Positions 1-57,904 of a stretch of 64,000 nt of DNA are shown piece by piece. This DNA is from Eledone cirrhosa. Lineage: Eukaryota. The first letter of the stretch is position 1, and the number at the start of each line of letters is the position of its first letter. The notes beneath the pieces are model-generated. The model saw only the letters and a list, made by a program, of their open reading frames with translations. It did no database searches and was not told the DNA's origin. The stretch spans positions 63,178,001 through 63,242,000 of the forward strand of contig OZ024743.1 in NCBI GenBank assembly GCA_964016885.1, read 5' to 3'. Both the position numbers and the translations under genes were made by a program.

Positions 1-1007
1 GATGTTGTGGCACCAACATAACTTTACATTGAAAGGGGCGGTGTGGATGGGGTGGGGGTGGTGGGACGGGGGTGTATTTTGTTATGAGATGCCTACTGAC
101 TGTAGTAGGTTTTACTTTGTATTTAGGTAAGGCGGGTCTTCTCTATTACTGAGTACCGCCAAAGGTCTCGGTCCAGTGACATTGTCTTGGTCAGGTGTAA
201 GTGTGTGAGGTCGGAATTTATCAGCTTGTCCCAGGTTTTTCTGGGTCTGCCTATTCCGTGGCTACCGTCTATCTTTATTGCCCTGCACTTTGTTATACAG
301 CTATCGTCCTTCATGCGCATCACGTGACCATACCAACGTAGCCTTCTCTCGAGTAAACAACATCTGATCCCTCTCATTTCTAATTTTTTCCTTAGTTCGT
401 TAATGCTTTGCCGTTCACGTATATTACTATTACACATCCAGCGGAGCATGCAAGCTTCGTTCCTCTCTAGTCTGCGTATATCCTCTGCACACAATGCCAA
501 GGTCTCACTGCCATGCAACATTGCTGTTCGTATGCAGGCATCATACAGCCGGCCTTTCATTTTTAGGGAGAACCCTTTAGCGGCTAATAGTGGTATAAGC
601 TCTCTGAACTTTTTCCATCCAGTTCTGACTCTAGCTACTGTACTTTCAGAGCACCCTCCCCCACTGCTGATTTTGTCACCCAGGTAACGGAAGCAGTCCA
701 CTATTTCTATAGAACCCTCTGCGCAATTGAAAGAGCTAGTATTTTGTGGGCACTTGCTGCTACTTATTGCACCAGAGCACCGGCCACATGTAAAATCTAT
801 GTTCTTAGTTAGCTTACCTGTGATCCCACTACATCTTTTATGCACCCAAACTTTGCATTTGGGACATAAAATGGAGTTTGTACCTACGACTTTCCTACAC
901 ACTGAGCATAGGCCATTTCACGGAAGGGACCGGCGCCCTATTTTCTTTCCTACAAACTAGAACTTTAGTCTTAGCCAGGTTAATTTTAAGGCCTTTTGAT
1001 TCTAGGC
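1..1007 (-). mobile_element. RTE-clade LINE copy A, 5'-truncated; 3' UTR runs off the window
   Basis: ORF 123..902 encodes the RT C-terminus ([20 protein letters not shown]), nearly identical to copies B-D. Similarity stops at ...TTCTAGGC (1007), next to (TA)n. Confidence 0.93.
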
Positions 1008-1057
1008 ATATATGTATATTACACTATATATATATATATATATATACTACACTATAT

Positions 1058-2318
1058 ATCATCATCATCATCATCATCGTTTAACGTCCATGTTCCACGC
1101 TTGCATGGGTTTGGACGGAGGGTTTTCCCACTTGAGGCAAGAGTGGTTATCTTGCTCGCATAGGACTATCTGGCGGGTTTTCTACAGCTGGATGCCCTTC
1201 CTAACACCAACCACATTTACAGTGTGGGGCTGGGAGGTTTTTACCGTGTTGCCTACACAGCCACATTACAGCATGAACTGTGTGTTTTTTTGACGTGACA
1301 CCTACACGATCTCATTTGTTTCGGCCTGGATGTTGTGGCACCAACATAACTTTACATTGAAAGGGGCGGTGTGGATGGGGTGGGGGTAGTGGGACGGGGG
1401 TGTATTTTGTTATGAGATGCCTACTGACTGTAGTAGGTTTTACTTTGTATTTAGGTAAGGCGGGTCTTCTCTATTACTGAGTACCACCAAAGGTCTCGGT
1501 CCAGTGACATTGTCTTGGTCAGGTGTAAGTGTGTGAGGTCGGAATTTATCAGCTTGTCCCAGGTTTTTCTGGGTCTGCCTATTCCGTGGCTACCGTCTAT
1601 CTTTATTGCCCTGCACTTTGCTATACAGCTGTCGTCTTTCATGCGCATCACGTGACCATACCAACGTAGCCTTCTCTCGAGTAAACAACATCTGATCCCT
1701 CTCATTTCTAATTTTTTCCTTAGTTCGTTAATGCTTTGCCGTTCACGTATATTACTATTACACATCCAGCGGAGCATGCAAGCTTCGTTCCTCTCTAGTC
1801 TGCGTATATCCTCTGCACACAATGCCCAGGTCTCACTGCCATGCAACATTGCTGTTCGTATGCAGGCTTCATACAGCCGGCCTTTCATTTTTAGGGAGAA
1901 CCCTTTAGCGGCTAATAGTGGTATAAGCTCTCTGAACTTTTTCCATCCAGTTCTGACTCTAGCTACTGTACTTTCAGAGCACCCTCCCCCACTGCTGATT
2001 TTGTCACCCAGGTAACGGAAGCAGTCCACTATTTCTATAGAACCCTCTGCGCAATTGAAAGAGCTAGTATTTTGTGGGCACTTGCTGCTACTTATTGCAC
2101 CAGAGCACCGGCCACATGTAAAAATCTATGTTCTTAGTTAGCTTACCTGTGATCCCACTACATCTTTTATGCACCCAAACTTTGCATTTGGGACACAAAA
2201 TGGAGTTTCTACCAACGCCTTTCCTACACTCTGCGCATGGCCACTTCCCGGAGGGGACCGCCGCCTTATTTTCTTTCTTACAAACTAGAACTTTAGTCTT
2301 AGCCAGGTTAATTTTAAG
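1058..2318 (-). mobile_element. RTE-clade LINE copy B, 5'-truncated, with (GAT)n tail
   Basis: (CAT)n tail at 1058-1078, 3' UTR, and ORFs 1451..2029 and 2088..2336 joined by a 1-nt frameshift near 2121. Confidence 0.93.
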
Positions 2319-2417
2319 ATATATATATATATACATTACACTATATATATATACATTACACTATATATATATATATATACATTACACTATATATATATAT
2401 ATATACACATTACACTA
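2319..2417. repeat. CATTACAC-(TA)n compound microsatellite spacer
   Basis: Four CATTACAC units separated by TA runs, between copies B and C. Confidence 0.9.
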
Positions 2418-5400
2418 TTGGAGGTGAGAGAGAGAAAAATCTGGACGCTCAGCGACAATGCCAAAGATAAAGACAAATTCACCTCTTGGACGAGAATGCG
2501 AGCACTCCTCATTGTTTCGACCGCGGACGGCTAACATAACCCCATCGCCCCCCGCCCCCAACCCGCAAACGCAATCCAAAACTTCAGAGTTGGTACCATA
2601 AATGTAGGCACCCTAAAGGGTCGCGCTAACGAGGTTGTAGAAATGCTTGAACGTAAGGAGGTCGATGTTTGTTGTATTCAAGAGACCAGGTGGAGGGGTG
2701 GGTCTGCTAGGTTCATTGAGGGTAAAAAACGATGTTATAAGCTTTTCTGGGTGGGAAACGACGATGGGCTGGGTGGAGTAGGAATCATGGTAGCAGAAAA
2801 GTAGGCAGATAAGATAATAGACGTAAATAGAGTGAACGACAGAATAATTAAAATACGACTTGTCCTCAATAGAACTACGGTGACAGTAATATCTGCGTAC
2901 GCACCCCAATCTGGACTGCCCGGCACTATAAAAGACAGATTCTATGAGACACTGATGCTAACTACCTCCCAAATATCCGACAGTGACTATATAATTATCG
3001 CAGGCGACCTAAATGGTCACGTTGGACAACATTGTGACGGCTACGACGAAATCCATGGAGGCTATGGGTTCGGTACTAGAAATGAGGAAGGCTCCAGAAT
3101 CCTGGAATTCTGTGATGCAAATAACCTAACTATCTGTAACACTAACTTCAAAAAACGTGACAATCACCTGATCACCTATAGATCCGGGGAACACACAAGC
3201 CAGGTAGATTATATCCTTACCAGAAGACGTGACAGAGTGTCTGTTGTAAACACTAAATCCCTCCCCCATGAAGAATGCACCTCCCAACATAGACTGATAA
3301 TTAGCGACCTCATAGTCAGGACGAGACGTACTCGACAGCAGAAGAGGACTATCCTCAGGAGAAAAATATGGAAGCTAAAGGACCCCACAGCCAGGAATAA
3401 ATTTCAAAGCATATTACTTGATGCTTTCGACAGTAAGGAAGAACATTTAGAGTCGGACAATATAGAGGGAGAGTGGGAATTTCTGAAAGCAAACCTGCTG
3501 TTGGCGACAGACGAAGTCTGTGGCTGGAGCAGGCCTGTAGGCAGGAGGAGAGTAACATGGTGGTGGAACAGTAAGGTGGAGGGGTCAATTAAGGCCAAAA
3601 AGCAGGCTTGGAAAGTATGGCGGGATGGGGGAAGTAGAGAGGACTATCAAGTGGCCAGGAGGGAAGCTAGGAGACAAGTGTACTTAGCAAGAAGGGAAGC
3701 TGAGGAAAGAAAGTTCAAGCATGTTCTACAACGCGATGACCAAAAACGTGAGGTGTTCAGGATTGCTAGGCAATGCGTCAAGGAAAACCGTGATATTGTC
3801 GGGGAGAAGTGTGTACTAAACGACGATGGCACACTTGCCATCACCGACGCTGATAAGAAGGTAGCTTGGAAGTGTCACTATGAAAGGCTACTAAATGAGG
3901 AGAATAAATGGGAGAAAGACAGTCTCCCCCATATCGACCCAATAGAGGGACCAGCAGTGTTAGTCGAGGGGAGTATAATAAGTAAGGCAATCAAGGATAT
4001 GAAGACGGGTAAGGCGGCTGGGCCTTCGGAAATAGTTGCTGAGATGCTGAAGGCATCTGGCACGGTGGGACACACCATGGTCACCCGCATAGTTAACCAA
4101 GTCGTACAGAATGGGGTTGTTCCGAAGGACTGGCATAGCAGCATCATCGTTAACTGTTATAAGGGTAAAGGAGACGCCCTAGATAGGAGTAACTATAGAG
4201 GCATTAAATTAATCGACCAGGTCATGAAGGTCACGGAAAAAGTAATAGCGCAACTAATCAGAGAGAGAATTGACCTAGATGAAATGCAGTTCGGGTTTGT
4301 GTCAGGCAAAAGTACCACAGACGCTCTTTTCATAGTACGACAACTACAGGAGAAGTACCTAGCTAAAGGTAAACCCCTCTACTTAGCTTTTGTCGACTTG
4401 GAGAAAGCCTTCGACAGAGTCCCCCGCTCCATTATCTGGTGGGCTCTTAGAAAACTAGGCGTTGACTAATGGCTTGTGAGGGCTATACAAGCCATGTATA
4501 AAGAAACAGTCAGCAAGGTTAGAATTAACAACGAATATAGTGAAGAGTTTAGCGTAAAAGTTGGCGTCCATCAGGGCTCTGTTCTCAGCCCACTACTATT
4601 TATTATTGCCCTTCAGGCTATAACAGAGGAGTTCAAGACAGGCTGCCCATGGGAACTCCTATACGCAGACGACCTGACACTCATAGCGGAATCAATGGCC
4701 GAGCTAGAGAAGAAATTCCAAACATGGAAGCACGGCTTAGAGTCAAAAGGACTTAAAATTAACCTGGCTAAGACCAAAGTACTAGTTTGTAGGAAAGAAA
4801 ACAAGGCGGCGGTCCCTTCTGGGAAATGGTCGTGCTCGGTGTGTAGGAAAGGCGTAGGTAGAAACTCCATTTTATGTCCTAAATGCAAAGTATGGGTGCA
4901 TAAAAGATGTAGTGGGATCACAGGTAAGCTAACTAAGAACATAGATTTTACATGTGGCCGGTGCTCTGGTGCAATAAGTAGCAGCAAGTGCCCACAAAAT
5001 ACTAGCTCTTTCAATTGCGCAGAGGGTTCTATAGAAATAGTGGACAGCTTCCGTTACCTGGGCGATAAAATCAGCAGTGGGGGAGGGTGCTCTGAAAGTA
5101 CTGTAGCTAGAGTCAGAACTGGTTGGAAAAAGTTCAGAGAGCTTATACCACTATTAGCTGCTAAAGGGTTCTCACTAAAAATGAAAGGCAGGTTGTACGA
5201 TGCCTGCATACGAACAGCAATGCTGCATGGCAGTGAGACCTGGGCATTGTGTGCAGAGGATATACGCAGACTAGAGAGGAACGAAGCTTGCATGCTCCGC
5301 TGGATGTGTAACAGTAATATACGTGAACGGCAAAGCATAAACGAACTAAGGAAAAAATTAGAGATAAGAGGGATCAGATGTTGTTTACTCGAGAGAAGGC

Positions 5401-6017
5401 TACGTTGGTATGGACACGTGATGCGCATGAAAGTCGATAGCTGTATAACAAAGTGCAGGGCAATAAAGATAGACGGTAGTCACGGAATAGGCAGACCTAG
5501 AAAAACCTGGGACGAGCTGATAAACTCCGACATCACACACTTACACCTCTCCAAGACAATGTCACTGGACCGAGACCTTTGGCGGTACTCAGTAACAGAG
5601 AAGACCCGCCTTACCTAAATATATAGTAAAACCTACTCCAGCCAGTAGGCATCTCTAACAAAATACACCCCGTCCCACCACCACCACCCCCACCCCATCC
5701 ACACCACCCCGTTCTATGTAAAGTTATGTTGGTGCCGCGCCATCGAGGCCGAAACAAATGAGATCGTGTAGGTGTCACGACAAAAAAACACACAGTCCAC
5801 GCTGTAATGTGGCCGTGTAGGCAACACGGTAAAAACCTCCCAGACCCACACTGTAAATGTGGTTGGTGTTAGGAAGGGCATCCAACTGTAGAAAACCTGC
5901 CAGACAGTCCTATGCGAGCAAGACAATCACTCTTGCCTCAAGTGGGACTACCCCCGTCCAAACCCATGCAAGCGTGGAACACGGACGTTAAACGTTGATG
6001 ATGATGATGATGATGAT
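2418..6017 (+). mobile_element. RTE-clade LINE copy C, near full length, inactivated
   Basis: APE endonuclease motifs (VGTINV, IQETRW, SAYAPQ, GDLNGHVG, QVDYIL, SQH) and RT motifs ([26 protein letters not shown]); ends in a (GAT)n tail. Confidence 0.96.
2586..5618 (+). pseudogene. APE-RT polyprotein of copy C with two in-frame nonsense codons
   Basis: One frame from 2586 is interrupted by TAG at 2802 (Trp in the intact 36203..39322 paralog) and TAA at 4467 (GAA in copy D). No in-frame ATG lies upstream without an indel. Confidence 0.9.
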
Positions 6018-6318
6018 ATATACATTACACTATATACATATATATATATACATTACACTATATATATATATACATTACACTATATATATATATATATATA
6101 TACATTACACTATATATATATATATATATACATTACACTATATATATATATATATATACATTACACTATATATATATATATATATACATTACACTATATA
6201 TATATATATATATACATTACACTATATATATATATATATATACATTACACTATATATATATATACATTACACTATATATATATATATATATATATACATT
6301 ACACTATATATATATATA
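6018..6318. repeat. CATTACAC-(TA)n compound microsatellite
   Basis: About a dozen CATTACAC units with variable TA spacers. Confidence 0.92.
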
Positions 6319-8056
6319 TTAGCTTTCGTCGACTTGGAGAAAGCCTTCGACAGAGTCCCCCGTTCCATTATCTGGTGGTCTCTTAGAAAACTAGGTGTTG
6401 ACGAATGGCTTGTGAGAGCTATACAAGCCATGTATAAAGAAACAGTCAGTAAGGTTAGAATTAACAACGAATATAGTGAAGAGTTTAGCGTAAAAGTTGG
6501 TGTCCATCAGGGCTCTGTTCTTAGCCCCCTACTATTTATTATTGCCCTTCAGGCTATAACAGAGGAGTTCAAGACCGGCTGCCCATGGGAACTCCTATAC
6601 ACAGATGATCTGACGCTCATAGCTGAATCAATGACCGAACTAGAGAAGAAATTCCAAACATGGAAGCACGGCCTAGAATCAAAAGGCCTTAAAATTAACC
6701 TGGCTAAGACTAAAGTTCTAGTTTGTAGGAAAGAAAATAAGGCAGCGGTTCCATCTGGGAAATGGCCATGCTCAGTGTGTAGGAAAGGCGTAGGTAGAAA
6801 CTCCATTTTATGTCCCAAATGCAAAGTATGGGTGCATAAAAGATGTAGTGGGATCACAGGTAAGCTAACTAAGAACATAGATTTTACATGTGGCCGGTGC
6901 TCTGGTGCAATAAGTAGCAGCAAGTGCCCACAAAATACTAGCTCCTTCAACTGCGCAGAGGGTTCTATAGAAATAGTGGACAGCTTCCGTTATCTGGGTG
7001 ACAAAATCAGCAGTGGGGGAGGGTGCTCTGAAAGTACAGTAGCTAGAGTCAGAACTGGATGGAAAAAGTTCAGAGAGCTTATACCACTATTAGCCGCTAG
7101 AGGGTTCTCCCTAAAAATGAAAGGCAGGTTATACGATGCCTGCATACGAACAGCAATGCTGCATGGCAGTGAGACCTGGGCATTGTGTGCAGAGGATATA
7201 CGCAGACTAGAGAGGAACGAAGCTTGCATGCTCCGCTGGATGTGTAACAGTAATATACGTGAACGGCAAAGCATAAACGAACTAAGGAAAAAATTAGAAA
7301 TAAGAGGGATCAGATGTTGTTTACTCGAGAGAAGGCTACGTTGGTACGGTCACGTGATGCGCATGAAAGACGACAGCTGTATAACAAAATGCAGGGCAAT
7401 AAAGATAGACGGTAGCCACGGAGTAGGCAGACCCAGAAAAACATGGGACGAGCTGATAAATTCCGACCTCACACGCTTACACCTCTCCAAGACAATGTCA
7501 CTGGACCGAAACCTTTGGCGGTACTCAGTAATAGAGAAGACCCGCCTTACCTAAATACAAAGTAAAAACCTACTACAGTCAGTAGGCATCTCTATCAAAA
7601 CACACCCCGTCCCACCACCTCCACCCCACCCACACCGCCCCTTTCAATGTAAAGTTATGTTGGTCCCACAACATCCAGGCCGAAACAAATGAGATCGTGT
7701 AGGTGTCACAACAAAAAACACACAGTCCATGCTGTAAATGTGGCCGTGTAGGCAACACGGTAAAAACCTCCCAGCCCCACACTGTAAATGTGGTTGGTGT
7801 TAGGAAGGGCATCCAGCTGTAGAAAACCCGCCAGACAGTCCACGCTGTAATGTGGCCGTGTAGGCAACACGGTAAAAACCTCCCAGCCCCACACTGTAAA
7901 TGTGGTTGGTGTTAGGAAGGGCATCCAACTGTAGAAAACCCGCCAGGCAGTCCTATGCGAGCAAGACAACCACTCTTGCCTCAAGTGGGAAAACCCCCGT
8001 CCAAACCCATGCAAGCGTGGAACAAGGATGCTAAACCTGATGATGATGATGATGAT
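6319..8056 (+). mobile_element. RTE-clade LINE copy D, 5'-truncated inside RT, YADD changed to YTDD
   Basis: Starts at [11 protein letters not shown] and is open to the stop at 7554. The 3' UTR has a 113-bp internal duplication and a (GAT)n tail. Confidence 0.95.
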
Positions 8057-8218
8057 ATATATACATTACACTATATATATATATATATATATATATACAT
8101 TACACTATATATATTACACTATATATATATATATATATATTACACTATATATATATATATATTACACTATATATATATATATATTACACTATATATATAT
8201 ATATATATATATATATTA

Positions 8219-8256
<38 letters not shown>

Positions 8257-8716
8257 CACTATATATATATATATATATATATATTACACTATATATATAT
8301 ATATATATATATATTACACTATATATATATATATATATATTACACTATATATATATATATATATATTACACTATATATATATATATATTACACTATATAT
8401 ATATATATATATTACACTATATATATATATATATATTACACTATATATATATATATATATATTACACTATATATATATATATATATTACACTATATATAT
8501 ATATATATTACACTATATATATATATATATATTACACTATATATATATATATATATTACACTATATATATATATATATATTACACTATATATATATATAT
8601 ATTACACTATATATATATATATATTACACTATATATATATATATATCACACTATATATATATATATATTACACTATATATATATATATATCACACTATAT
8701 ATATATATATATATTA

Positions 8717-8756
<40 letters not shown>

Positions 8757-8834
8757 CACTATATATATATATATATTACACTATATATATATATATATTA
8801 CACTATATATATATTACGCTATATATATATTACG

Positions 8835-8897
<63 letters not shown>

Positions 8898-9014
8898 TAC
8901 ATTACACTATATATATATATATATTACACTATATATATATATATGTACATTACACTATATATATATATATTACACTATATATATATACATTACACTATAT
9001 ATATATATATATTA

Positions 9015-9048
<34 letters not shown>

Positions 9049-9187
9049 CACTATATATATATACATTACACTATATATATATATATATATTACACTATAT
9101 ATATATATATGTACATTACACTATATATATATATATTACACTATATATATATACATTACACTATATATATATATATAGTGTAATATA
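8057..9187. repeat. 1.1-kb (C/T)ATTACAC-(TA)n compound microsatellite ending in one inverted unit
   Basis: Dozens of TTACAC units in TA runs. TAGTGTAATATA at ~9176-9187 is the reverse complement of the unit. Confidence 0.95.
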
Positions 9188-9189
9188 AG

Positions 9190-9390
9190 GAGTAAGAGGG
9201 ATCAGATGTTGTTTACTCGAGAGAAGACTACGTTGGTATGGTCACGTGATGTGCATGAAAGACGACAGCTGTATAAAAAAGTGCAGGGCGATCATAATAG
9301 ACGGTAGCTACGGAGTAGGCAGACCCAGAAAAACCTGGGACGATTTGATAAATTCCAACCTCACACACTTACACCTCTCCAAGACAATGA
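9190..9390 (+). mobile_element. RTE LINE internal fragment E
   Basis: Matches copies C/D from [11 protein letters not shown] to LHLSKTM; lacks both ends. Confidence 0.9.
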
Positions 9391-11844
9391 CACATTACTC
9401 TACACACACCTATCTAACCCCACACAGGCACACATTAGGTACTCTACACATACCTATCTAACCCCACACAGGCACACATTAGGTACTCTACACACACCTA
9501 TCTAACCCCACACAGGCACACATTAGGTACTCTACACACACCTATCTAACCCCACACAGGCACACATTAGGTACTTTACACACACCTATCTAACCCCACA
9601 CAGGCACACATTAGGTACTCTACACACACCTATCTAACCCCACACAGGCACACATTAGGTACTCTACACACACCTATCTAACCCCACACAGGCACACATT
9701 AGGTACTCTACACACACCTATCTAACCCCACACAGGCACACATTAGGTACTCTACACACACCTATCTAACCCCACACAGGCACACATTAGGTACTTTACA
9801 CACACCTATCTAACCCCACACAGGCACACATTAGGTACTTTACACACACCTATCTAACCCCACACAGGCACACATTAGGTACTCTACACACACCTATCTA
9901 ACCCCACACAGGCACACATTAGGTACTCTACACATACCTATCTAACCCCACACAGGCACACATTAGGTACTTTACACACACCTATCTAACCCCACACAGG
10001 CACACATTAGGTACTTTACACACACCTATCTAACCCCACACAGGCACACATTAGGTACTTTACACACACCTATCTAACCCCACACAGGCACACATTAGGT
10101 ACTTTACACACACCTATCTAACCCCACATAGGCACACATTAGGTACTTTACACACACCTATCTAACCCCACACAGGCACACATTAGGTACTCTACACACA
10201 CCTATCTAACCCCACACAGGCACACATTAGGTACTCTACACATACCTATCTAACCCCACACAGGCACACATTAGGTACTTTACACACACCTATCTAACCC
10301 CACACAGGCACACATTAGGTACTTTACACACACCTATCTAACCCCACACAGGCACACATTAGGTACTTTACACACACCTATATAACCCCACACAGGCACA
10401 CATTAGGTACTTTACACACACCTATCTAACCCCACACAGGCACACATTAGGTACTCTACACATACCTATCTAACCCCACACAGGCACACATTAGGTACTC
10501 TACACATACCTATCTAACCCCACACAGGCACACATTAGGTACTCTACACACACCTATCTAACTCCACACAGGCACACATTAGGTACTCTACACACACCTA
10601 TCTAACCCCACACAGGCACACATTAGGTACTCTACACATACCTATCTAACCCCACACAGGCACACATTAGGTACTCTACACATACCTATCTAACCCCACA
10701 CAGGCACACATTAGGTACTCTACACACACCTATCTAACCCCACACAGGCACACATTAGGTACTCTACACACACCTATCTAACTCCACACAGGCACACATT
10801 AGGTACTCTACACACACCTATCTAACCCCACACAGGCACACATTAGGTACTCTACACATACCTATCTAACCCCACACAGGCACACATTAGGTACTCTACA
10901 CATACCTATCTAACCCCACACAGGCACACATTAGGTACTCTACACACACCTATCTAACCCCACACAGGCACACATTAGGTACTCTACACACACCTATCTA
11001 ACCCCACACAGGCACACATTAGGTACTCTACACATACCTATCTAACCCCACACAGGCACACATTAGGTACTTTACACACACCTATCTAACCCCACACAGG
11101 CACACATTAGGTACTCTACACACACCTATCTAACCCCACACAGGCACACATTAGGTACTCTACACATACCTATCTAACCCCACACAGGCACACATTAGGT
11201 ACTCTACACACACCTATCTAACCCCACACAGGCACACATTAGGTACTCTACACACACCTATCTAACCCCACACAGGCACACATTAGGTACTCTACACACA
11301 CCTATCTAACCCCACACAGGCACACATTAGGTACTCTACACACACCTATCTAACCCCACACAGGCACACATTAGGTACTCTACACACCTATCTAACCCCA
11401 CACAGGCACACATTAGGTACTCTACACATACCTATCTAACCCCACACAGGCACACATTAGGTACTTTACACACACCTATCTAACTCCACACAGGCACACA
11501 TTAGGTACTCTACACACACCTATCTAACCCCACACAGGCACACATTAGGTACTTTACACACACCTATCTAACCCCACACAGGCACACATTAGGTACTTTA
11601 CACACACCTATCTAACTCCACACAGGCACACATTAGGTACTTTACACACACCTATCTAACTCCACACAGGCACACATTAGGTACTTTACACACACCTATC
11701 TAACTCCACACAGGCACACATTAGGTCCTCTACACACACCTATCTAACCCCACACAGGCACACATTAGGTACTCTACACACACCTATCTAACCCCACACA
11801 GGCACACATTAGGTACTCTACACACACCTATCTAACCCCACACT
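9391..11844. repeat. 44-bp minisatellite, ~55 copies
   Basis: Unit CACACAGGCACACATTAGGTACTCTACACACACCTATCTAACCC (starts at 9421 and 9465); only a few recurring point variants. Confidence 0.97.
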
Positions 11845-13222: not shown

Positions 13223-13713
<491 letters not shown>

Positions 13714-22069: not shown

Positions 22070-22600
22070 TTACATTTTATACACAAAATGGAATATCCAC
22101 CCACTCCTTTCCTGCCTATTGGACAAGGCCATTTCCCTGGGGGAATAAGAGCCTTATTTTCTTTTTTACTTACTAGGACTTTGGTCTTTGCTGGGTTGAC
22201 TGTGAGGCCTTTTGATTCCAGGTTTTGCTTCCATGCCTGGAATTTATCTCTAATTCTGCAGCTGTTTCAGCTATGATTACTAGATCATTGGCATATAAGA
22301 GTTACCATGGGCAACCAGTCTTAAACTCCTCTGTTATGGCCTGCAGAACAGTAATACCCAGGAGGGGATGAGGACAGAGCCCTGATGGACCCCCACCAGC
22401 ACACTAAATTTGCCACTATAATCATTGTTGACTTACATTACTGACTGCACCTGTGTGCATAGTTTGTACTACTCTTAAAGCCATTCCTCTATCCCTAGAA
22501 GCCACAAGATTATGGAACAAGGAGCCCTGTCAAAAGATTTTTTTCAGGTCAACAAATTCTAGGTAAGGGAGGTTACTCTTAGGTATTTCTCCTGCAGCTC
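22070..22600 (-). mobile_element. Old RTE RT fragment
   Basis: Degenerate match to the 36950-37490 region of the intact RTE (CCATGGGCAACCAGTCTTAAACTCCTCTGTTATGGCCTGCAG). Confidence 0.85.
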
Positions 22601-24004: not shown

Positions 24005-24225
24005 TCACCAGCCCACACTGTAAAGTGGTCATGTAGGACTCACAACAAAAAGCACCTAGTACACAATGTTAATGTGGCTGGCATTAGGAAGGGCATCCAG
24101 CTGTAGAAACCAAGCCAAAGTCAGTATGAGCAAGGCGTAGTCATCTGACATGAAGTATCACAACGGGACAACTCATCTAACCCATGTTAGTGTGGAAAAA
24201 TGGATGTTAAACAGTGATGATGATA
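24005..24225 (+). mobile_element. RTE 3'-UTR/tail fragment
   Basis: CACACTGTAAAGTGG...TTAGGAAGGGCATCCAGCTGTAGAAAC...CCCATGTTAGTGTGGAA...GATGATGAT. Many similar relics are scattered across the window. Confidence 0.75.
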
Positions 24226-24794
24226 ATAAGATATAACTCCTCTGCACATAAGGAGGTAGGAGTTTAACACAAACAAAGAGCAATAATAATGTATGAAGTG
24301 AGTCTAGAAAAATACTTAGAAGTAAATAAAACTAATTAAGTTAGTAAGGGAACATGAAAAAGGCATTTCTCTTTATAAAAGGCATCAAGCATTTTAAAGT
24401 CATTTTCCCAGCTAAAGCTGAGGCTAGCATTACAGGTCCCATTTTTCTTCTAGTAGTATGACACATGAACAGTAACTAGAGAGGCAGGTCAAGATCAGCA
24501 AACTAGGCCAAGGCGTCATTAGAGGCAACTAAAAGTGTTAGCATCAAGAAGGACCTCCAGTTATAAAATATTACCTAAAAAAAAAAAAAGGACTATGAAG
24601 AGTATGAAGGTCCCATGATAAGCTTCATATTCATCATAGGTAGTATTTTATCATTGGATGTCCTTCTTGATGCTAACTCCTTTTAGTTGCCTTTTACAAC
24701 ATGCAGAGAAATGGTGTACCTATTCTAAAATGGATACTTGCTGAAAAACATTACAAGCTAGATGTTAAGTACACTAAAAAAAAAAAATGTTTAA

Positions 24795-28659: not shown

Positions 28660-28850
28660 ATGTCCCTGCACATTCATTGACACCACACATCCATCAAAGC
28701 CTGCTCACTTCCTTTCTCTCCAGCCTTCACATATCTTCTGTATTTACTGCCTATGTTTCCCTTCCATACAGCATCACACTTCACATGCAGGCATCAAATG
28801 GCTGGCCTTTCATTTGTAGAGAGAAACCTTTTGTTATCAATACTAAACTT
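28660..28850 (-). mobile_element. Old RTE C-terminal fragment
   Basis: Translates as KGFSLQMKGQPFDACM, versus [16 protein letters not shown] in the young copies. Confidence 0.75.
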
Positions 28851-30279: not shown

Positions 30280-30640
30280 TATGCTGTGACTTCATTTTGT
30301 GAGACATTGGCAGCAACTGCGGAGGATATGCGACGGCTGGAGAAATGAAGCAAGCATGCTCCGATGGATGTGCAATATGAATGTGTGTGAACAATCAAGC
30401 ATAGATGAGTTGAGTGAGAAACTGTGTATAAGAGGGATAAACTGTAGTGTGCAGGAGAGAAGACAATGTTGATATGGACATGTGATGCACATGGAGGATG
30501 ACCGCTGGGTAAAGAAGTGCCAAGAAATGCCAGAGGAAGACCATGAAAATCATGGGCAAAGGTGATGAGAGCTAACCTCAGATCACTGAACCTCACAGAT
30601 GAGATGACGAAGGACCATGACAAATGGAGAGATGCTGTGC
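30280..30640 (+). mobile_element. Old RTE C-terminal fragment
   Basis: GAGGATATGCGACGGCTGGAGAAATGAAGCAAGCATGCTCCGATGGATGTG matches the [18 protein letters not shown] region, with indels. Confidence 0.8.
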
Positions 30641-32805: not shown

Positions 32806-33143
32806 TCATCATCATTTCATTTTACATCCACTTTTTCCCTGCTTGCAAGGGTGGGACGGGAACCGATTCTGGCTTGATTTCTACAGCTGGATGCCCTTCC
32901 TAACACCAACCTCATTTACAGCGAGTGCTGGGTGCTTTTTTTCCGTGGCACCTCCACGACCACTTTGCAGTGGAATGATAGGGACCCCAGTCCTATCATC
33001 TCATTTTTACAGCTGAGTAAACTGGAGCAATGTGAAATAAAGTATCTTGCTCAAGGAAACAACACATCACCCGGTCTGAGAATTGAACTCACAACCTTTA
33101 TATTGCAAGGCCGATGCTCTAACCACTAAGCCATGTGCCTCCA
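32806..33143 (-). mobile_element. Second copy of the tRNA-headed RTE-tailed SINE
   Basis: Near-identical reverse complement of 13368-13713. Confidence 0.9.
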
Positions 33144-35729: not shown

Positions 35730-35901
35730 TAGAGGTGAACTAGCCTACAAATTTAGAAGGGCCCTAAAGAAACATAATCTCAATATTAAGATAGTAGAAA
35801 GACCTGGTACCTCCGTAAAAACACTTATTAGCAAGACATACCCGTTCCAAAGACCCTCATGTATAGATAAGAAATGTATAACCTGTAAAATAAGCCCCCA
35901 T
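35730..35901 (+). mobile_element. PLE right arm, proximal part
   Basis: Reverse complement of 35545-35716; interrupted after ...AAGCCCCCAT by the RTE tail. Confidence 0.9.
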
Positions 35902-38900
35902 CATCATCATCATCATCACCGTTTTACGTCCGTTCTTCCACGCTAGCATGGGTTAGACGGGTTGTCCTGTTGTGGGCAGTGTCTGGTCGGCTGACCATGC
36001 CTTGCTCATACAGGAACTGATCTGGCTTGATTTCTACAGCTGGATGCCCTTCCTAACACCAACCTCATTTACAGTGAGTGCTGGGTGCTTTTTCGTGGCG
36101 CCTACACGTCCACTTTACAGTGTGGGCTGGGTGCTTTTTTGCCGTGGCACCTCCACGACCACCTTGCGGTGGGGGGGGGGGGGGGCATATTGTTTATATG
36201 CTTCAGCATGTACCCATGGGAGGTCGGGTACCCTGTATTACTGCGTGACGCCAGAAGTCACGGTCGTGTGTCATTGACTTTGAGAGGTGTAGTTGGGTAA
36301 GGTCGGCTTTTATCACCTCATCCCAAGTCATCTTGGGTCTCCCCACTCCGCGGTTTCCATCAACTTCTAGTGCTCTGCACCTTTTTATGCAGCTGTCATC
36401 CTTCATACGCATCACATGTCCATACCAGCGTAACCGCCTCTCCTGCACGCAGCATTTGATTCCTCTTATGCTCAGTCTCTCTCTCAATTCATTTATGCTT
36501 TGTCGTTCACGTATATTACTGTTACACATCCATCGGAGCATGCAGGCTTCGTTTCTCTCTAATCTACGTAAGTCTTCCACCTTCAGCGCCCAGGTCTCAC
36601 TACCATGCAACATCGCTGTTCGGATACACGCATCATACAGTCTGCCTTTCATTCTGAGGGAGAAGCCTTTTGCAGCTAGCAGTGGTAGTAGTTCCCTAAA
36701 CTTCTTCCATCCCGTTCTTACCCTAGTTATTGTACTTTCTGAGCACCCACCTCCGTTGCTAATTCGGTCACCTAGGTAGCAGAAGCTGTCTACTGTTTCT
36801 ACAGGGCCCTCCCAGAGATTGGTGGTACTTGTTTCCTGTGGCTGTTTGCTTGCTGTTTCAGCACAGCTGCTGCATGTGAATCCTACATTCTTAATTAAGC
36901 TTCCTGAGATCCCGCTACATCTCTTGTGTACCCATTGTTTGCATTTGGGGCAAAGAATGGAGTTCCTACCTACACCTTTCCTACATACTGAGCAAGGCCA
37001 TTTCCCTGAGGGGATCTGGGTTCTGTTTTCTCGTCTACTTATAAGGACCTTAGTCTTTGTCATGTTGACTTTGAGGCCCTTTCTCTCTAGTCCCTGCTTC
37101 CAGGTTTGGAATTTATTCTCTAGTTCTACCATAGATTCAGCTATGAGTGCGAGGTCATCAGCATACAGGAGTTCCCATGGGCATCCGGTCTTAAACTCCT
37201 CCGTTATTGCCTGCAGGACTATGATGAACAGGAGAGGGCTAAGAACAGAGCCCTGGTGGACCCCAACCTGTACGCTAAATTCCTCGCTATACTCATTGCC
37301 AATCCTAACTTTGCTGACTGCTCCCCTATACATGGCTTGTACCGCTTTCACAAGCCATTCATCTACTCCTAGTTTTCTAAGAGCCCACCAGATTACTGCA
37401 CGTGGAACTCTGTCAAAGGCTTTCTCAAGGTCGACAAATGCCAAGTAGAGTGGCTTACTTTTAGCTAGGTACTTTTCCTGTAATTGCCTCACAAGGAAGA
37501 GCGCATCAGTGGTGCCTTTCCCTGGAACAAACCCAAATTGCATCTCGTCTATATTCACCCGGTCCCTAATCAGCTGTGCTATAACTCTTTCTGTTACTTT
37601 CATGACCTGGTCCATCAACTTTATACCTCTATAGTTTCCTCTATCTAGTGCATCGCCTTTACCTTTGTAGCAGTTGACAATGATGCTACTGCACCAATCT
37701 TTTGGTATGGCCCCCTCTAGTATTACCTGGTTAACGATACGTGTGGTTATAGTGTGACCTACAGACCCAGATGCCTTCAGCATCTCGGCAGCTATACCCG
37801 ATGGACCGGTTGCCTTCCCTATCTTCATATCTCTGATTGCCTTACTTACTACGCTGCCGCTGACTTGTACTGCTGGTCCCTCTATAGGGTCTACGTGGGG
37901 TAGGGTCTCTTCTTCCCATGCATTCTCCTCATTTAGTAATCTATCATAATGACTCTTCCATGCATCTTTCTTCTCAGCACTTGTGAGGGCAAGCTCACCT
38001 TTATCATTCCGGATACACTTCTCTCCAATGACATCACAACTATCTCTGACACACTGCCTCGCAATCTTGAATACCTCCTGTTTCTGGTCCTCACGTTGTA
38101 AAACATGCTTGAATTTTCTATCCTCTGCTTCCCTCCTAGCTAAGTATACTTGTCGCCTAGCTTCCCTCTTGGTCTCTATGTAATGTACCCTGCTCCCCCC
38201 GTTCTTCCATTCTTTCCATGCCTGTCTCTTGGCCTTGACTGCTTCATCTACCTTATTGTTCCACCACCAAGTCACTCTCCTCCTGCTTGAGGTCTTACTC
38301 CAGCCACAAACCTCATCCGTCGCCTCTAGTAAGTTATTTTTTAGGAACTCCCAGTTCTCTTCTACGTTAAATGTCTCTATCTGTTCTTCTTTACTGTCGT
38401 AGGCGTTGAGTAAAATATCTTTAAATCTGTTACTGGTTGAGGGGACTTTCAGCTTCCAGATCTTTCTTCTCCAGGTTGGCCTCTGTTTCAGGGCTCGTCT
38501 AGTTCTGACCGTGAGGTCGCTGACAACTAAGCTATGTTGGGATGTACATTCCTCACTAGGGAAGGCTTTTGTGTTTACGACCGTCCATCTGTCACGTCCT
38601 CTGATGAGAATAAAATCTAACTGACTAGAGTGCTCCCCTGATCTATAGGTGATCAGGTGGTTGTCGGGTTTTTTAAAGTTTGTGTTACATATCGACATGT
38701 CATTGGCGTCGCAGAATTCTAGAAGTCTGAATCCTTCCTCATTCCTTGTGCCAACTCCATGGCCTCCATGTACTCTATTGAAGCCGTCGCAGTGTTTACC
38801 TACGTGTCCGTTAAAATCTCCTGCAATGATTAGGAAGTCCTTGTCGTCTGTTAGAGCAGTAGTGTGTATTAGGGACTCGTAAAACCTATCCTTAAGTTCG

Positions 38901-40188
38901 TCTGGCAGCCCCGATTGGGGTGCGTAAGCTGATATTATTGTGGTAATTGTCTTATTCAGGACTAGTCTGAGTTTAATGATTCTTGCATTTACCCTGTACA
39001 CTGAGATTACTTTATCTACCCACTTGTCAGCTAATAGTATACCTACACCACCCATCCCATCGTCATTTCCCACCCAGAAAAATTTGTAGCACTGGCTTTT
39101 TCCTACAAGGACTCTAGCAGACCCTCCTCTCCATCTAGTCTCTTGCACACAGCATACATCAACTTCCTTTCGCTCTAGCATTTCTACGATTTCTCCTGCT
39201 CTTCCTTTCATTGAGCCTACATTGATGGTACCAACTCGGAGTTTTGGGCATTTGTCGACACTCGTAGGGGAGGGTCTCTGGGTTGGCGCTTCACGTGGGT
39301 GCTTGGTAGCTCGCAGATTCATATTTCATCTATTGATTCAGAGTTGCTCGTGTATTCCCAGCTCATCCATCCATAACGGTGGGAAAATTGAGGGCTAGAA
39401 GGACAGTGGTGGTGGGGTAATGGCAGGGTGTGTTGGGATGCGCCAGAGGAGGAGAGAGTTAGTTAGGCAGGTAGTAGTAGCAGCAGCAGTGGAAATGGCA
39501 TGCTAGGTTTGATTGGTCGAATAGACTATGGTGGTGTGTGGGGGTGGGGGGGAGGGAAATTGTGAGGTAGGAACTGAGGGTCGCATGGTAAATATCCAAG
39601 TTAATACTACATCAGTAAAATTAACAATAATAACGTCATGAAAAAAGCTACTAAGAGAAACCCTCGAAAATTTATCGCTAATACAGCAGGGAAAATTTAA
39701 CGCTAATACAGCAGGGAACATCATAATATTAACGACATGAAAAAGCTACTAAGAGAAACCCTCGAAAATTTATCGCTAATACAGCAGGGAAAATTTAACG
39801 CTAATACAGCAGGGAACATCATAATATTAACGACAATATGTAGGCTAAAATACCTTCGTAGATTAGGTGGATGGCTGGCTGGGAAAATTTGAATCAGCTC
39901 TACTGGTACATTTTAGCAGAGAAGAATGGCAAAGTGTCTTATCTCTTCAATATTTTCAGATTGAATGAATTAGGTTAAAGACAGGGTAGTAAGCCTTAAA
40001 GAAGTGCATAGAGGGGGGGGGGGGTAGGAACTGAGGGTCGCATGGTAAATAACTGAGAGAGATACAATAGGATTAGAATACCGCATGGTAAATATCCAAG
40101 TTAATAAGTTAATACTACATCAGTAAAATTAACAATAATAACGTCATGAAAAAAGCTACTATTAACATATTAACTGTACTATTAACAT
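35902..40188 (-). mobile_element. Apparently full-length RTE-clade LINE (second family) inserted in the PLE arm
   Basis: (CAT)n tail at 35902, intact ORF, ~0.85 kb upstream region. The arm offsets (coordinate sums 71446 vs 75733) give a 4287-bp insertion. Confidence 0.93.
36203..39322 (-). CDS. Intact RTE ORF, 1039 aa: APE endonuclease + reverse transcriptase with internal PHD-type zinc finger
   Basis: ATG to stop with no interruption; motifs [79 protein letters not shown]. Confidence 0.95.
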   Translation of the reverse strand: MNLRATKHPREAPTQRPSPTSVDKCPKLRVGTINVGSMKGRAGEIVEMLERKEVDVCCVQETRWRGGSARVLVGKSQCYKFFWVGNDDGMGGVGILLADKWVDKVISVYRVNARIIKLRLVLNKTITTIISAYAPQSGLPDELKDRFYESLIHTTALTDDKDFLIIAGDFNGHVGKHCDGFNRVHGGHGVGTRNEEGFRLLEFCDANDMSICNTNFKKPDNHLITYRSGEHSSQLDFILIRGRDRWTVVNTKAFPSEECTSQHSLVVSDLTVRTRRALKQRPTWRRKIWKLKVPSTSNRFKDILLNAYDSKEEQIETFNVEENWEFLKNNLLEATDEVCGWSKTSSRRRVTWWWNNKVDEAVKAKRQAWKEWKNGGSRVHYIETKREARRQVYLARREAEDRKFKHVLQREDQKQEVFKIARQCVRDSCDVIGEKCIRNDKGELALTSAEKKDAWKSHYDRLLNEENAWEEETLPHVDPIEGPAVQVSGSVVSKAIRDMKIGKATGPSGIAAEMLKASGSVGHTITTRIVNQVILEGAIPKDWCSSIIVNCYKGKGDALDRGNYRGIKLMDQVMKVTERVIAQLIRDRVNIDEMQFGFVPGKGTTDALFLVRQLQEKYLAKSKPLYLAFVDLEKAFDRVPRAVIWWALRKLGVDEWLVKAVQAMYRGAVSKVRIGNEYSEEFSVQVGVHQGSVLSPLLFIIVLQAITEEFKTGCPWELLYADDLALIAESMVELENKFQTWKQGLERKGLKVNMTKTKVLISRRENRTQIPSGKWPCSVCRKGVGRNSILCPKCKQWVHKRCSGISGSLIKNVGFTCSSCAETASKQPQETSTTNLWEGPVETVDSFCYLGDRISNGGGCSESTITRVRTGWKKFRELLPLLAAKGFSLRMKGRLYDACIRTAMLHGSETWALKVEDLRRLERNEACMLRWMCNSNIRERQSINELRERLSIRGIKCCVQERRLRWYGHVMRMKDDSCIKRCRALEVDGNRGVGRPKMTWDEVIKADLTQLHLSKSMTHDRDFWRHAVIQGTRPPMGTC

Positions 40189-42005: not shown

Positions 42006-44013
42006 CTGAGACCTGGAAAATAGCATAGGTTTTCACTCATAGGAAGTAATTTGATGTAACTATGTTGGTGTGTTTGCATGTATGTAGGCATGAATTGGAG
42101 GAGTTGTTAGAACATCAGATATAATATTTTGTGGTATTTATTCTGGCTCTCTGCACTCTGAGTTCAATTCTTACCGAAGTCAACTTTGCTTTTATCATTT
42201 TGGGGTCTATAAAAAAAAGTACCAGGCCAGTGCTGGGTCAATTTTTTCTCTTTCTCTCTCCCTCTGTTGAGAAATCAACTATGATCAGACATGGAAAGGG
42301 ATAGGCTCTGCCAGGTTTAAAATGCTCAAGACAGAGTGCTCTGAGAGGATTTTCATGGCACCAACACTAAGGAAGTTGTCATGTTTTTGACACAGCTGAA
42401 GATTTCTCCTGACATTTTCTTTAGCAAGCATCATGATGGCTCTCCTACAATTCTGTTAGGGGTTAAGGGTCCATGGATATTTACATGATGTTTATCAGGT
42501 GATTCATTCACTATTTTACAAATGAAAAGATAACAATGCCAGCCTACAAACCAGCTTTAATCTTTTCTCATGATTCAAGTGGTTGATTTTTAAAAATATT
42601 TTTTATAGAAGATTCAGTTATTACTAGAAAAGGAATTATGATCGGACATTAAGGTTAAATAACTATCATAAAATTATTTTTTTAATGTGGTTTTTATAAG
42701 AAATATAATAAACAAGCTTCAGGTCCCATCAATTCAGCCACTCATTCACTCGCGCCATTAATACACATCTTTCTGTAGTTCACCATAGAAATATGCAGAT
42801 GTTTGTGTGGTTAATTTCACAAAAATAGAGCTTTTATCCAAATCCTATTTTTAGACATTCTATTCAAATACCACTTCTTGGCAAAGATTTCTTTTCAGAC
42901 TATTTCTCTTGTTTCCATTGACAAAGTTTCTTTCTCTCTCTCAGCTTATGACCCTATTACTAGATCTTTACAATTCTCTAGCAACAGCTTGGAAATTCGC
43001 TAAATAATTTCAAAGTGACTGTACAGTCATTACAATAATTAATTCAGTAGGGTAAAAATTATTACAGATTGATTTTTATATTTTTCTTTGTTTGAGATTA
43101 TTATCATTATTATAAAAAAAAAAAAAAAATAAAATAATAAATTTAAAAAAAAATGATCATTAATATTTGTAACTCTGGAAGTTTTTTGTTTTTTGTAATT
43201 TACATGTGTTTTTTTCATGTTGAATGCAAAGTCCTGTTATGACTAATATTGCTAGAAAGGATTAGCTCATCAAAATCTATAGAAATTGTTTATCTTCTCA
43301 TTAAAACCATTTCATATCATTACCATCATTATTTAACATCCGCATCTCACTTACATACGTTCCTGCACTCTCTACAGAGTTCCCTCAGTTCATTTTCATG
43401 ACAACAACATTAGGGAGGTAGGTTATGTCTTTGACAAAACTGAAGAGTTCTCCTGACCTTTTTGTTTAGCTGGTTTTTTACAGCTGGGTGTTTTTCATAC
43501 CACCAACTACTGTACTGGGCACATTTATTGTGTAGATCACCAGCATTAGGGAGGTTGTTGTACTTTGAGACAACTGAACAGTCCTCTTGACCCTCACAAT
43601 ATGATTTTGTAGATTAAAAATGTCCTCCACCCTATATCATTATACGGTGGTGAATTTAATTGCTAGAGTGTTGAATTAAATGCTTCAGTATCTACTCTGA
43701 GCCTCTCTACTTGGATTTCAAATTATGCCAAGGTTATCTTTGCTTTGATAGAAGCTGTTGATTTGTAGAATTGTTCTGTTCTAGGTTCAAACATTGTTCC
43801 TGTCATCAGAAAAAAACTGATGACTGCCAAGATTTATGACTGGCAGACAGTATATATACCCCTTTCTCTAGCAGGCTGGCCTCTCATGTGAAGTAATTGG
43901 CCCTAAAAAAGGGATCATGAACATTCTCAAATATCAACTAAACTATGTTCATGTTTTTTTGTAAACAAAAATGTTTAGAAGAAATCATCAACATCATTTT
44001 ACATCTGCTTCCT

Positions 44014-56000: not shown

Positions 56001-57805
56001 GATTGGGACTGGTTGTTATGGTTGAATGCTGTCATAGTTTGGATTGGTTGTTATGGTTGAATGCTATCATGATTGGGATTGGTTGTTATGGTTGAATGCT
56101 AATATAGTTTGGATTGGTTGTTATGGTTGAATGCTGTCATGGTTTGGACTGGTTGTTATGGTTGAATGCTGTCATGATTGGGATTGGTTGTTATGGTTGA
56201 ATGCTGTCATAGTTTGGATTGGTTGTTATGGTTGAATGCTGTCATGGTTTGGATTGGTTGTTATGGTTGAATGCTGTCATAGTTTGGATTGGTTGTTATG
56301 GTTGAATGCTGTCATGGTTTGGACTGGTTGTTATGGTTGAATGCTGTCATAGTTTGGATTGGTTGTTATGGTTGAATGCTGTCATAGTTTGGATTGGTTG
56401 TTATGGTTGAATGCTGTCATGGTTTGGACTGGTTGTTATGGTTGAATGCTGTCATAGTTTGGATTGGTTGTTATGGTTGAATGCTATCATGATTGGGATT
56501 GGTTGTTATGGTTGAATGCTGTCATGATTGGGATTGGTTGTTATGGTTGAATGCTGTCATGATTGGGATTGGTTGTTATGGTTGAATGCTGTCATGATTG
56601 GGATTGGTTGTTATGGTTGAATGCTGTCATGATTTGGATTAGTTGTTATGGTTGAATGCTGTCATGGTTTGGATTGGTTATTATGGTTGAATGCTGTCAT
56701 GGTTTGGATTGGTTGTTATGGTTGAATGCTGTCATAGTTTGGATTGGTTGTTATGGTTGAATGCTGTCATGGTTTGGATTGGTTGTTATGATTGAATGCT
56801 GTCATAGTTTGGATTGGTTGTTATGGTTGAATGCTGTCATGGTTTGGACTGGTTGTTCTGGTTGAATGCTGTCATAGTTTGGATTGGTTGTTATGGTTGA
56901 ATGCTATCATGATTGTGATTGGTTGTTATGGTTGAATGCTGTCATGATTGGGATTGGTTGTTATGGTTGAATGCTGTCATGATTGGGATTGGTTGTTATG
57001 GTTGAATGCTGTCATGATTGGGATTGGTTGTTATGGTTGAATGCTGTCATGATTGGGATTGGTTGTTATGGTTGAATGCTGTCATGATTGGGATTGGTTG
57101 TTATGGTTGAATGCTGTCATGATTTGGATTAGTTGTTATGGTTGAATGCTGTCATGGTTTGGATTGGTTGTTATGGTTGAATGCTGTCATGGTTTGGATT
57201 GGTTGTTATGGTTGAATGCTGTCATAGTTTGGATTGGTTGTTATGGTTGAATGCTGTCATGGTTTGGATTGGTTGTTATGGTTGAATGCTGTTATAGTTT
57301 GGATTGGTTGTTATGGTTGAATGCTATCATGATTGGGATTGGTTGTTATGGTTGAATGCTAATATAGTTTGGATTGGTTGTTATGGTTGAATGCTGTCAT
57401 GGTTTGGACTGGTTGTTATGGTTGAATGCTGTCATGGTTTGAACTGGTTGTTATGGTTGAATGCTGTCATAGTTTGGATTGGTTGTTATGGTTGAATGCT
57501 GTCATGATTGGGATTGGTTGTTATGGTTGAATGCTATCATGATTGGGATTGGTTGTTATGGTTGAATGCTGTCATGATTGGGATTGGTTGTTATGGTTGA
57601 ATGCTGTCATGGTGTGCACTGGTTGTTATGGTTGAATGCTGTCATGATTTGGATTGGTTGTTATCATGATTGGGATTGGTTATGTTTGAATTCTGTCATG
57701 GTTTGGATTGGTTGTTATGGTTGAATGGTGTCATGATTGGGATTGGTTGTCATGTTTGGGATTGGTTGTTATGGTTGAATGCTGTCATAGTTTGGATTGG
57801 TTGTC
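44014..57805. repeat. 35-bp satellite, ~390 copies, with higher-order structure
   Basis: Unit GGTTGTTATGGTTGAATGCTGTCATGGTTTGGATT (GTCAT at 47281 and 47316); rare variants recur 4340 bp apart. Confidence 0.98.
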
Positions 57806-57904
57806 ACAGTCGAAGTCTGTTATTTGGAGCCACTGTCCCCCTAGATAGCTAGAACTATGTCTAATTCATTATAAACATTCCCATTACAACAGAATATATA
57901 TAAC

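Follow-up and report, generated by a model that had tools for sequence, protein, structure and literature searches.

The stretch of DNA analysed here, referred to throughout as the window, comprises 64,000 nucleotides of the 3.0-Gb genome of Eledone cirrhosa (C4:63,178,001-63,242,000; C1, C2 and C4 denote contigs of this genome, C4 being OZ024743.1). At its left-hand end lie five related copies of a long interspersed nuclear element (LINE), named A to E from left to right, of which A and B are on the minus strand and C, D and E on the plus strand, as established by BLAST of copy C against the window and by pairwise BLAST between the copies (Table 1). All five are stacked in one compound microsatellite based on (TA)n, and the presence of this stack is confirmed. 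The account that we consider probable, with good though incomplete confidence, is that members of the same LINE family inserted at different times into one (TA)n array that already existed, that a likely local duplication added one copy (A or B), and that cutting or priming by the element prefers alternating TA sequence. Targeting of (TA)n by the family is supported genome-wide by the flanks of copies sampled elsewhere, and the pile in the window is one case of a structure that is common in this genome.

Pairwise identities between the copies range from 89 to 97.9%. The highest value belongs to A and B, either of which is 95.4-95.6% identical to D; C is 93.6-94.3% identical to A, B or D, and E is 89-91% identical to all others. 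Every copy in the pile is 5'-truncated, and A, B, C and D each finish on the 3' side in (GAT)n passing directly into ATAT. The tail of B reads as (ATC)n on the plus strand. That of A, a (GAT)4, lies 262 bp left of the window in the 20 kb of left-hand flank examined; beyond it comes a 96-bp (TA)n/TATTACAC array (J0) and then unrelated DNA, which places the left edge of the pile ~358 bp outside the window. At the other side, E breaks off at 9390, exactly where a 44-bp satellite begins, and neither original end of E is left. The first, shortened unit of this satellite (acacattac...) is similar to the CATTACAC interruption of the TA arrays. The original prediction for this DNA had described five related but non-identical copies in these orientations, joined by one and the same compound microsatellite, and both descriptions stand, with J0 as a further array of the same kind. 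Its statement that visible 3' ends run from (GAT)n into ATAT holds for A to D, whereas E has no visible 3' end.

Table 1. Features of the window discussed in the text (positions count from the first letter of the window; SINE, short interspersed nuclear element; UTR, untranslated region).
Feature	Position	Strand	Description
Copy A	1..1008	-	5'-truncated LINE; 97.9% identical to B, its sister in the tree
J1	1009..1057	+	49 bp; (TA)n with one TATTACAC and one TACTACAC unit
Copy B	1058..2318	-	5'-truncated 17 bp further in than A; tail at ~1058-1080
J2	2319..2418	+	100 bp; four (TA)n-CATTACAC units
Copy C	2419..6016	+	apparently the youngest; near-whole coding frame, 3' UTR and (GAT)7 tail, without the 5' UTR (by estimate ~240 nt or more)
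J3	6017..6318	+	302 bp; eleven (TA)n-CATTACAC units, variant as in J2
Copy D	6319..8056	+	5'-truncated; 112-bp internal duplication at 7722-7953; (GAT)n tail
J4	8057..9189	+	1133 bp; 40 TTACAC units (32 TATTACAC, 8 CATTACAC) and one inverted at 9178
Copy E	~9190-9393	+	old internal fragment, C positions ~2947-3147; both ends truncated
44-bp satellite	9396..11843	+	55.7 units, 97% matches; takes the place of E's 3' part and bounds the pile on the right
tRNA-related SINE	13369..13713	+	345 bp; 3' end of the LINE and (GAT)n tail; between (TA)n tracts
Second SINE copy	32806-33140	-	tRNA-like head, LINE-type 3' end and (GAT)n tail

The junctions between the copies are TA-based arrays broken by TTACAC units, together forming a (TA)n/(C)ATTACAC compound. 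Across J0 to J4 there are 2+1+4+11+40 = 58 such units on the plus strand, and a single inverted unit stands at 9178, beside E; the earlier claim that the motif keeps one orientation whatever the orientation of the element is therefore true of 58 of the 59 units. The 22-mer TATATACATTACACTATATATA has 28 exact matches in the genome, 19 of them within this locus (its reversed control has 12), which makes the compound repeat a signature specific to the locus. Since this signature flanks every copy in one orientation, the arrays are read as one array split by insertions. J2 and J3, on either side of C, consist purely of CATTACAC units (15/15), J0 and J1 are of the TATTACAC type and J4 contains both kinds (32 TATTACAC and 8 CATTACAC); judging by these motif variants, the purity of J2 and J3 would fit one array recently split by C.

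The relationships between the copies were placed in a maximum-likelihood tree of A to D with 49 genomic copies (53 rows and 1263 columns, covering a shared 1.26 kb), for which rows were picked solely for reaching C position 2330 or further 5'. Copy C is a member of the youngest clade and has an end branch of 0.0008, a reported identity of 100% to copy L101 over 1261 columns and a path distance of 0.004 to L096, L101 and L039, all on contig C1. Copy D belongs to a separate clade (support 98) and is 99% identical to L061. Its 112-bp duplication is common to its subfamily and present in many genomic copies, and the idea that this duplication is private to D was rejected as it is a subfamily trait. 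C and D thus belong to different genome-wide subfamilies and are therefore separate insertions, as the original prediction had expected of all copies.

Copies A and B behave differently. They are sisters in the tree (support 99), with a stem of 0.0094, tips of 0.012-0.013 and the nearest other copies at 0.04. Six states shared by the two are absent from the other 51 rows, and a 22-mer carrying an A/B double change has only two matches in 3.0 Gb, one at A and one at B. The pair is adjacent and in the same orientation, with truncation points 17 bp apart and similar tail arrays, J0 and J1. These sequence features suggest that A and B are probably one insertion that was later tandem-duplicated locally, with unequal exchange between the TA arrays on either side as the likely route. 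A and B differ mainly in their first ~130 and last ~110 nt, beside the TA arrays, the central ~1 kb being near-identical, and the private changes of A cluster at its ends.

The same data bear on the proposal that the whole pile is a segmental or tandem duplication of one insertion, or else an artefact of assembly. A and B do resemble a local duplicate, the arrays are long and no spanning read was obtained, and at C1:7.35-7.37 Mb the copies L092-L095, with identical flanks, are clear duplicates. However, C, D and the A/B pair are each nearer to copies on another chromosome than to one another, four truncation points and two orientations occur among the four copies, and an artefact would not yield subfamily-consistent copies with intact tails at every junction. 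The tree rejects a history in which all pile copies are segmental duplicates, and of the alternatives considered here this one strikes us as the most improbable. With C, D and A/B in three different supported clades, with four truncation points and in two orientations, the pile probably records C, D and the ancestor of A and B as separate events over a long time, with E as a fourth; two separate insertions are certain and four are probable. Judged by divergence, E would be the oldest, followed by the A/B ancestor, then D, then C. The earlier proposal of five independent insertions does not survive in this form, given that A and B are likely one insertion duplicated and that the original junctions of fragment E have been lost.

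Evidence that the family seeks out TA sequence comes from copies across the genome. A junction was scored as TA when at least 10 of the 12 adjacent bases fitted an alternating TA pattern. The first sample consists of the first 100 matches of a LINE 24-mer on C1 (0-7.9 Mb), which represent one chromosome end; L093-L095 were dropped as duplicates (their flanks are those of L092), leaving 97 copies. For the 5' ends, 75 resolved truncated copies were retained and 22 set aside, namely 13 running past the edge of the locus, one at an N run and eight of full length. TA adjoins the 3' end in 38/97 copies and the 5' end in 43/75 resolved truncated copies. Among the 68 resolved truncated copies outside a group embedded in a satellite (described below), TA is found at both flanks in 26 and at either flank in 48. 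As background, TA occurs at 3.46% of positions in random DNA (20 stretches of 10 kb each, drawn from four contigs) and at 0.83% in the remainder of the window. Measured against a local rate of 10.7%, taken from the surroundings of the copies themselves, the excess gives P = 2.7e-13 at the 3' side and P = 8.4e-23 at the 5' side.

A second sample comprised 30 copies from C1 (1.8-399 Mb) and C2 whose identity to C is 98.8-99.8%; two of them overlap the first sample, and L182 may be a duplicate of L183 or the reverse. TA is present at 17/30 of their 3' flanks and at 11/18 resolved 5' ends, and the flank opens with AT in 22/30. The strongest association with TA is thus seen in the youngest copies (17/30 at the 3' side). 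A random 200-kb sample contained one 3' end of the family. The genome itself is unusually rich in TA microsatellites: TA-like 12-mers make up 3.5% of 200 kb of random sequence (L103-L122), which also holds 205 perfect (TA)>=6 tracts. Taken together, the TA bias of the LINE is a strong preference and not a strict target specificity.

The presence of TA at both sides also speaks to the opposite direction of cause, in which the elements make the TA arrays, either because the tail is (GAT)n(AT)n or because insertion seeds TA that then expands by slippage, so that no targeting would be needed. The 3' ends of RTE elements are known as progenitors of microsatellites, as proposed for lepidopteran RTEs (PMC2887409), and a (GAT)n-ATAT end is plausible as a seed. 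Yet TA adjoins random 5' truncation points in 43/75 and 11/18 copies of the two samples, and TA at such points cannot stem from the tail, which is why these data indicate targeting and not genesis of the microsatellite. The orientation of the interrupting motif is moreover independent of that of the element (58/59 units here, and 16/16 at a second cluster at C1:953-962 kb), and each copy is bordered on its left and right by the same locus-specific motif. An origin of the arrays from the elements therefore appears very improbable.

The position of the cut can be followed at finer scale. In the first sample the flank following the tail opens with AT in 58/97 copies (background 9.8%) and with ATAT in 40/97 (background 2.4%), and outside TA tracts it still opens with AT in 22/59, against ~9% expected. 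A 20-bp satellite at C1:7.30-7.91 Mb contains nine copies, each truncated at a different point, and every one joins it at one phase, with the junction ..GGTAT^NTCAGTTT (..GGTAT^NTCAG); use of a single satellite phase points to a nick that is defined by sequence rather than by structure. This GTCAGTTTCGATTGGTATAT-like satellite houses many copies of the LINE (region L090-L102), at one phase of its unit. The duplicates L092-L095 within it are ~2-6 kb apart, and their 5' end adjoins an inverted piece of the element, which is possibly a twin-priming product. Clean target-site duplications (TSDs) of 27 bp (L056), 33 bp (L080) and 31 bp (L085) were found at non-repeat sites on contig C1.

These observations suggest a mechanism in which the apurinic/apyrimidinic-type (APE) endonuclease of the element would nick the bottom strand within runs of TA/AT (top strand ..TAT^AT..). 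The freed ..AT-3' end could then pair with the AU of the (GAU)n tail of the RNA and prime reverse transcription, which would mostly abort early and so leave a 5'-truncated copy, with the second nick often falling within the same TA tract. Each insertion would turn one array into two, both still targets and both still mutating, so that long TA arrays would gather nested copies in either orientation, while the flanking TA arrays would supply the homology for unequal exchange of the kind suggested for the A/B duplicate. The earlier suggestion that the family lands in (TA)n is borne out by the enriched flanks of both samples at 3' and 5' junctions, its proposal of AT microhomology between tail and target fits the flanks that open with AT (58/97 and 22/30), and both orientations of insertion do occur.

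The site might instead be chosen by breaks made by the host, through TA hairpins or cruciforms that are cut or that stall replication, with the LINE merely using the nicks; alternatively, copies in neutral TA arrays might simply survive better. TA arrays are fragile, cruciform-forming DNA cut by Mus81-type nucleases, according to a preprint (bioRxiv 10.64898/2026.01.20.700634), and host breaks would agree with the TA-rich neighbourhoods of the copies, with TA being commoner at 5' than at 3' junctions and with TSDs being seldom detectable. Against this, the (GAT)n tails are complete, as in ordinary target-primed reverse transcription, the nine same-phase insertions sit in a 20-bp satellite that is unable to form a TA cruciform, AT opens the flank in more than the expected share of copies outside TA tracts (22/59 versus ~9%), and the youngest copies, which are the least filtered by selection, are the most TA-associated (17/30). 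Choice of site by host breaks or by survival is in our view unlikely, though less so than genesis of the arrays by the elements.

Several results weigh against insertion into a pre-existing array guided by a preference for alternating TA, or qualify parts of it. Short contigs assembled from reads of four runs, likely from the source species, were compared with positions 1-6030 (the listed pieces are mostly of 70-220 nt) and none bridges any junction of the assembled TA arrays; nor was an empty site found for any copy of the pile, these same short contigs on 1-6030 having given neither an empty site nor a skipping joint that is interpretable. The surroundings of the copies are rich in TA (10.7% at 0.5-1.4 kb downstream in 30 loci, and 12/97 at 300 bp downstream of the tail), and therefore part of the raw 11-16-fold excess is regional. 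In random DNA, 53% of ATAT and 72% of ATATA sites already lie within TA tracts, and a preference for 4-5 nt in a TA-rich genome may reproduce most of the tract bias. Among the 68 resolved truncated copies that lie outside the satellite, 20 lack TA at both junctions, and only one of the eight full-length copies has a TA 3' flank. TA at the 5' side only (16 copies) exceeds TA at the 3' side only (6), an excess that the simple model does not predict, and among the 26 truncated copies that lack TA at both junctions, a count that takes in those embedded in the satellite, just three showed a TSD. For the A/B pair, a second k-mer has 11 matches, of which nine lie elsewhere than at A and B, a pattern that recurrent mutation could produce in a family of this size, and the concentration of A/B differences at the ends could reflect gene conversion of the middle or extra mutation beside the arrays.

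The original prediction regarded the recurrent pile-up as unusual and particular to this site, and this part of it is not supported by the distribution of copies elsewhere. When the 100 C1 matches are ordered along the contig, 32 neighbour pairs lie within 8 kb of each other, compared with a mean of 9.6 and a maximum of 20 in 2000 random placements, and six triples lie within 8 kb compared with 0.46 expected. Another copy at least 85% identical to C is found within 300 bp of 8/97 tails and of 8/83 5' ends. The cluster at C1:953-962 kb contains about nine LINE and SINE pieces, seven on the minus and two on the plus strand, separated by (TA)n with the unit ACAGTATATCTAAC, which occurs 16 times on the plus strand and never inverted. 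This is the architecture of the window with a different locus-specific motif. The pile in the window is hence one case of a common structure, and hotspot behaviour belongs to the family, and to TA arrays generally, rather than to this locus.

Copy C carries a single frame at 2535-5618 with in-frame stops at 2802 and 4467. Pfam identifies in it an endonuclease domain (Exo_endo_phos / Exo_endo_phos_2), a reverse transcriptase (RT; RVT_1) and then a PHD finger (PF00628, E 1.8e-6), which follows the RT at window positions 4833-4964 in C and is also present in D. A 3' UTR of ~380 nt precedes the (GAT)7 tail. Eight full-length genomic copies extend up to ~240 nt further 5' than C, in conserved sequence, and C was for this reason rejected as a full-length element; no second long open reading frame was found upstream of the main frame within C, which itself lacks these ~240 nt of the 5' end. 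Tails of (GAT)2-11 were present on 100/100 sampled genomic copies, and each of the three types of 3'-end sequence in the pile recurs widely across the genome. Exact matches to a 24-mer from close to the 3' end number 21,948 (control 0), which puts the family at no fewer than 21,948 copies. A 172-aa query returned 147,909 first-look candidates, and all 150 that were scored were 100% identical and free of stops; the family has therefore been active very recently.

Relatives of the LINE protein in databases are at most 51% identical in full-length alignments, and many of them carry PF00628; the few with names are annotated as 'craniofacial development protein 2-like' or 'LINE-1 pol'. CFDP2 derives from Bov-B, and LINEs of the RTE clade are widespread and known for horizontal transfer. 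By its architecture and its tail the present family looks RTE-like, a term used here for likeness in these features. Sequencing runs X1, X2, X9 and X10, which carry the labels of four other organisms, contain 34-37% of the words sampled from window positions 1-9400, and the family or close relatives of it probably occur in other species. A near-complete copy of a related LINE family lies in the window itself at 35899-39247 on the minus strand, with 74% identity to C over 3 kb and a similar 3' end, and further fragments (70-80%) are found at 22070-22597, 24009-24227, 28685-28831 and 30299-30520.

The LINE is likely accompanied by a non-autonomous partner, the tRNA-related SINE of Table 1, as suggested by the 3' end and tail that the two have in common. 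A 24-mer of the SINE has 30,138 matches in the genome. Its head scores 27 bits (E 0.0013) against the Rfam tRNA model, below the gathering score of 29, and ARAGORN found no tRNA in it. TA flanks the SINE in 9/25 copies at the 3' side and in 7/25 at the 5' side, in a strict count that is lowered by a 2-nt offset at the SINE head. A variant of the SINE ends in an (AATGA)n tail, and four of five further copies of it pass directly into TA.

Published work on RTE-clade LINEs provides the closest comparison. These elements are described as cutting at TA dinucleotides positioned downstream of a stretch of T, and their tail repeat as correlating with the first base of the TSD (PMC6007223; PMC13295347). 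They include RTE-1, Bov-B and plant RTEs, and their 'Tn-TA' signature denotes a T stretch ~10 nt upstream of the TA cut site (Nishiyama & Ohshima 2018; Nakatsuka & Ohshima 2026). The mechanism proposed here is close to this published model, which it extends to TA runs. Like RTE-clade LINEs, the present family encodes its N-terminal APE endonuclease and its RT in one frame, carries a microsatellite-like 3' tail where poly(A) might be expected, is often 5'-truncated and shares its 3' end with a SINE; its predicted cut also falls at TA/AT, where the tail repeat and the target's first base overlap by 1-2 nt. It differs in that alternating TA runs are preferred, with ~40-60% of junctions in TA microsatellites and with nests, in the PHD finger after the RT and in a 3' UTR of ~380 nt that is not very short. 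Its TSDs, where seen, measure 27-33 bp and are far longer than the 6-12 bp given for RTEs in a lepidopteran study (PMC2887409).

That study also describes RTE microsatellite families in Lepidoptera (Tay et al. 2010, PMC2887409) in which, as here, truncated RTE 3' ends lie beside simple repeats at very many loci; there, however, the repeat is situated between the TSDs and is taken as made by the element, whereas here a TA array lies on both sides and is read as a pre-existing target. Nests of transposons likewise contain stacked copies of different ages in both orientations, but the copies in this pile inserted not into each other but into a surviving shared microsatellite. LINEs specific for microsatellites come from the R4, R1, Tx1 and NeSL groups and keep almost strictly to their targets, while the present family is RTE-like and only biased; they have in common with it a simple repeat on both sides, a multicopy and presumably harmless target, and the reuse of arrays. 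Waldo (ACAY)n, Mino (AC)n, Kibi (TC)n and Koshi (TTC)n are examples of such elements. Further cases in other LINE groups are Dong at (TAA)n (PMC2887409) and Togen at (TG)n (PMC4640811), and most reported target-specific families fall into three groups other than RTE (PMC4640811). No RTE-clade family targeting (TA)n was reported in the full-text literature searched, Repbase and Dfam reports being outside that search. Microsatellite-targeting LINEs are thus already known, and what is new is a biased but non-strict preference for TA runs in an RTE-like LINE/SINE pair.

Elsewhere in the window, ~14 kb at 44000-58000 show extreme strand asymmetry (GC skew ~0.68, AT skew ~-0.44, GC 0.38), and this stretch is probably another long satellite.

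A bolder reading, which we put forward tentatively and would not yet favour, is that the LINE/SINE pair is in effect a (TA)n-homing retrotransposon of the RTE lineage, still active and living in nests that renew themselves in TA arrays throughout a 3-Gb animal genome, in which the APE domain would read TA, the AU of the tail would anneal and the PHD finger would possibly help in the choice of chromatin. If true, microsatellite targeting would have arisen among LINE groups a fourth time, independently, and TA arrays would act as a major sink, taking in insertions by the tens of thousands.

As far as the locus is concerned, the outcome is deflating, as it is one pile of many and needs no special local mechanism. 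At the level of the family, the choice of site by RTE elements is only now being described, and with roughly half of the LINE copies in TA microsatellites, and the SINE likewise, the pair offers a natural system for separating the preference of the endonuclease from pairing between tail and target. This separation is aided by the single defined cut site of the 20-bp satellite and by SINE copies that have another tail and still lie in TA. The preference also accounts for the way in which stacks of LINE and SINE pieces interrupt the TA arrays of this genome, which matters for assembly, for microsatellite markers and for the annotation of repeats.

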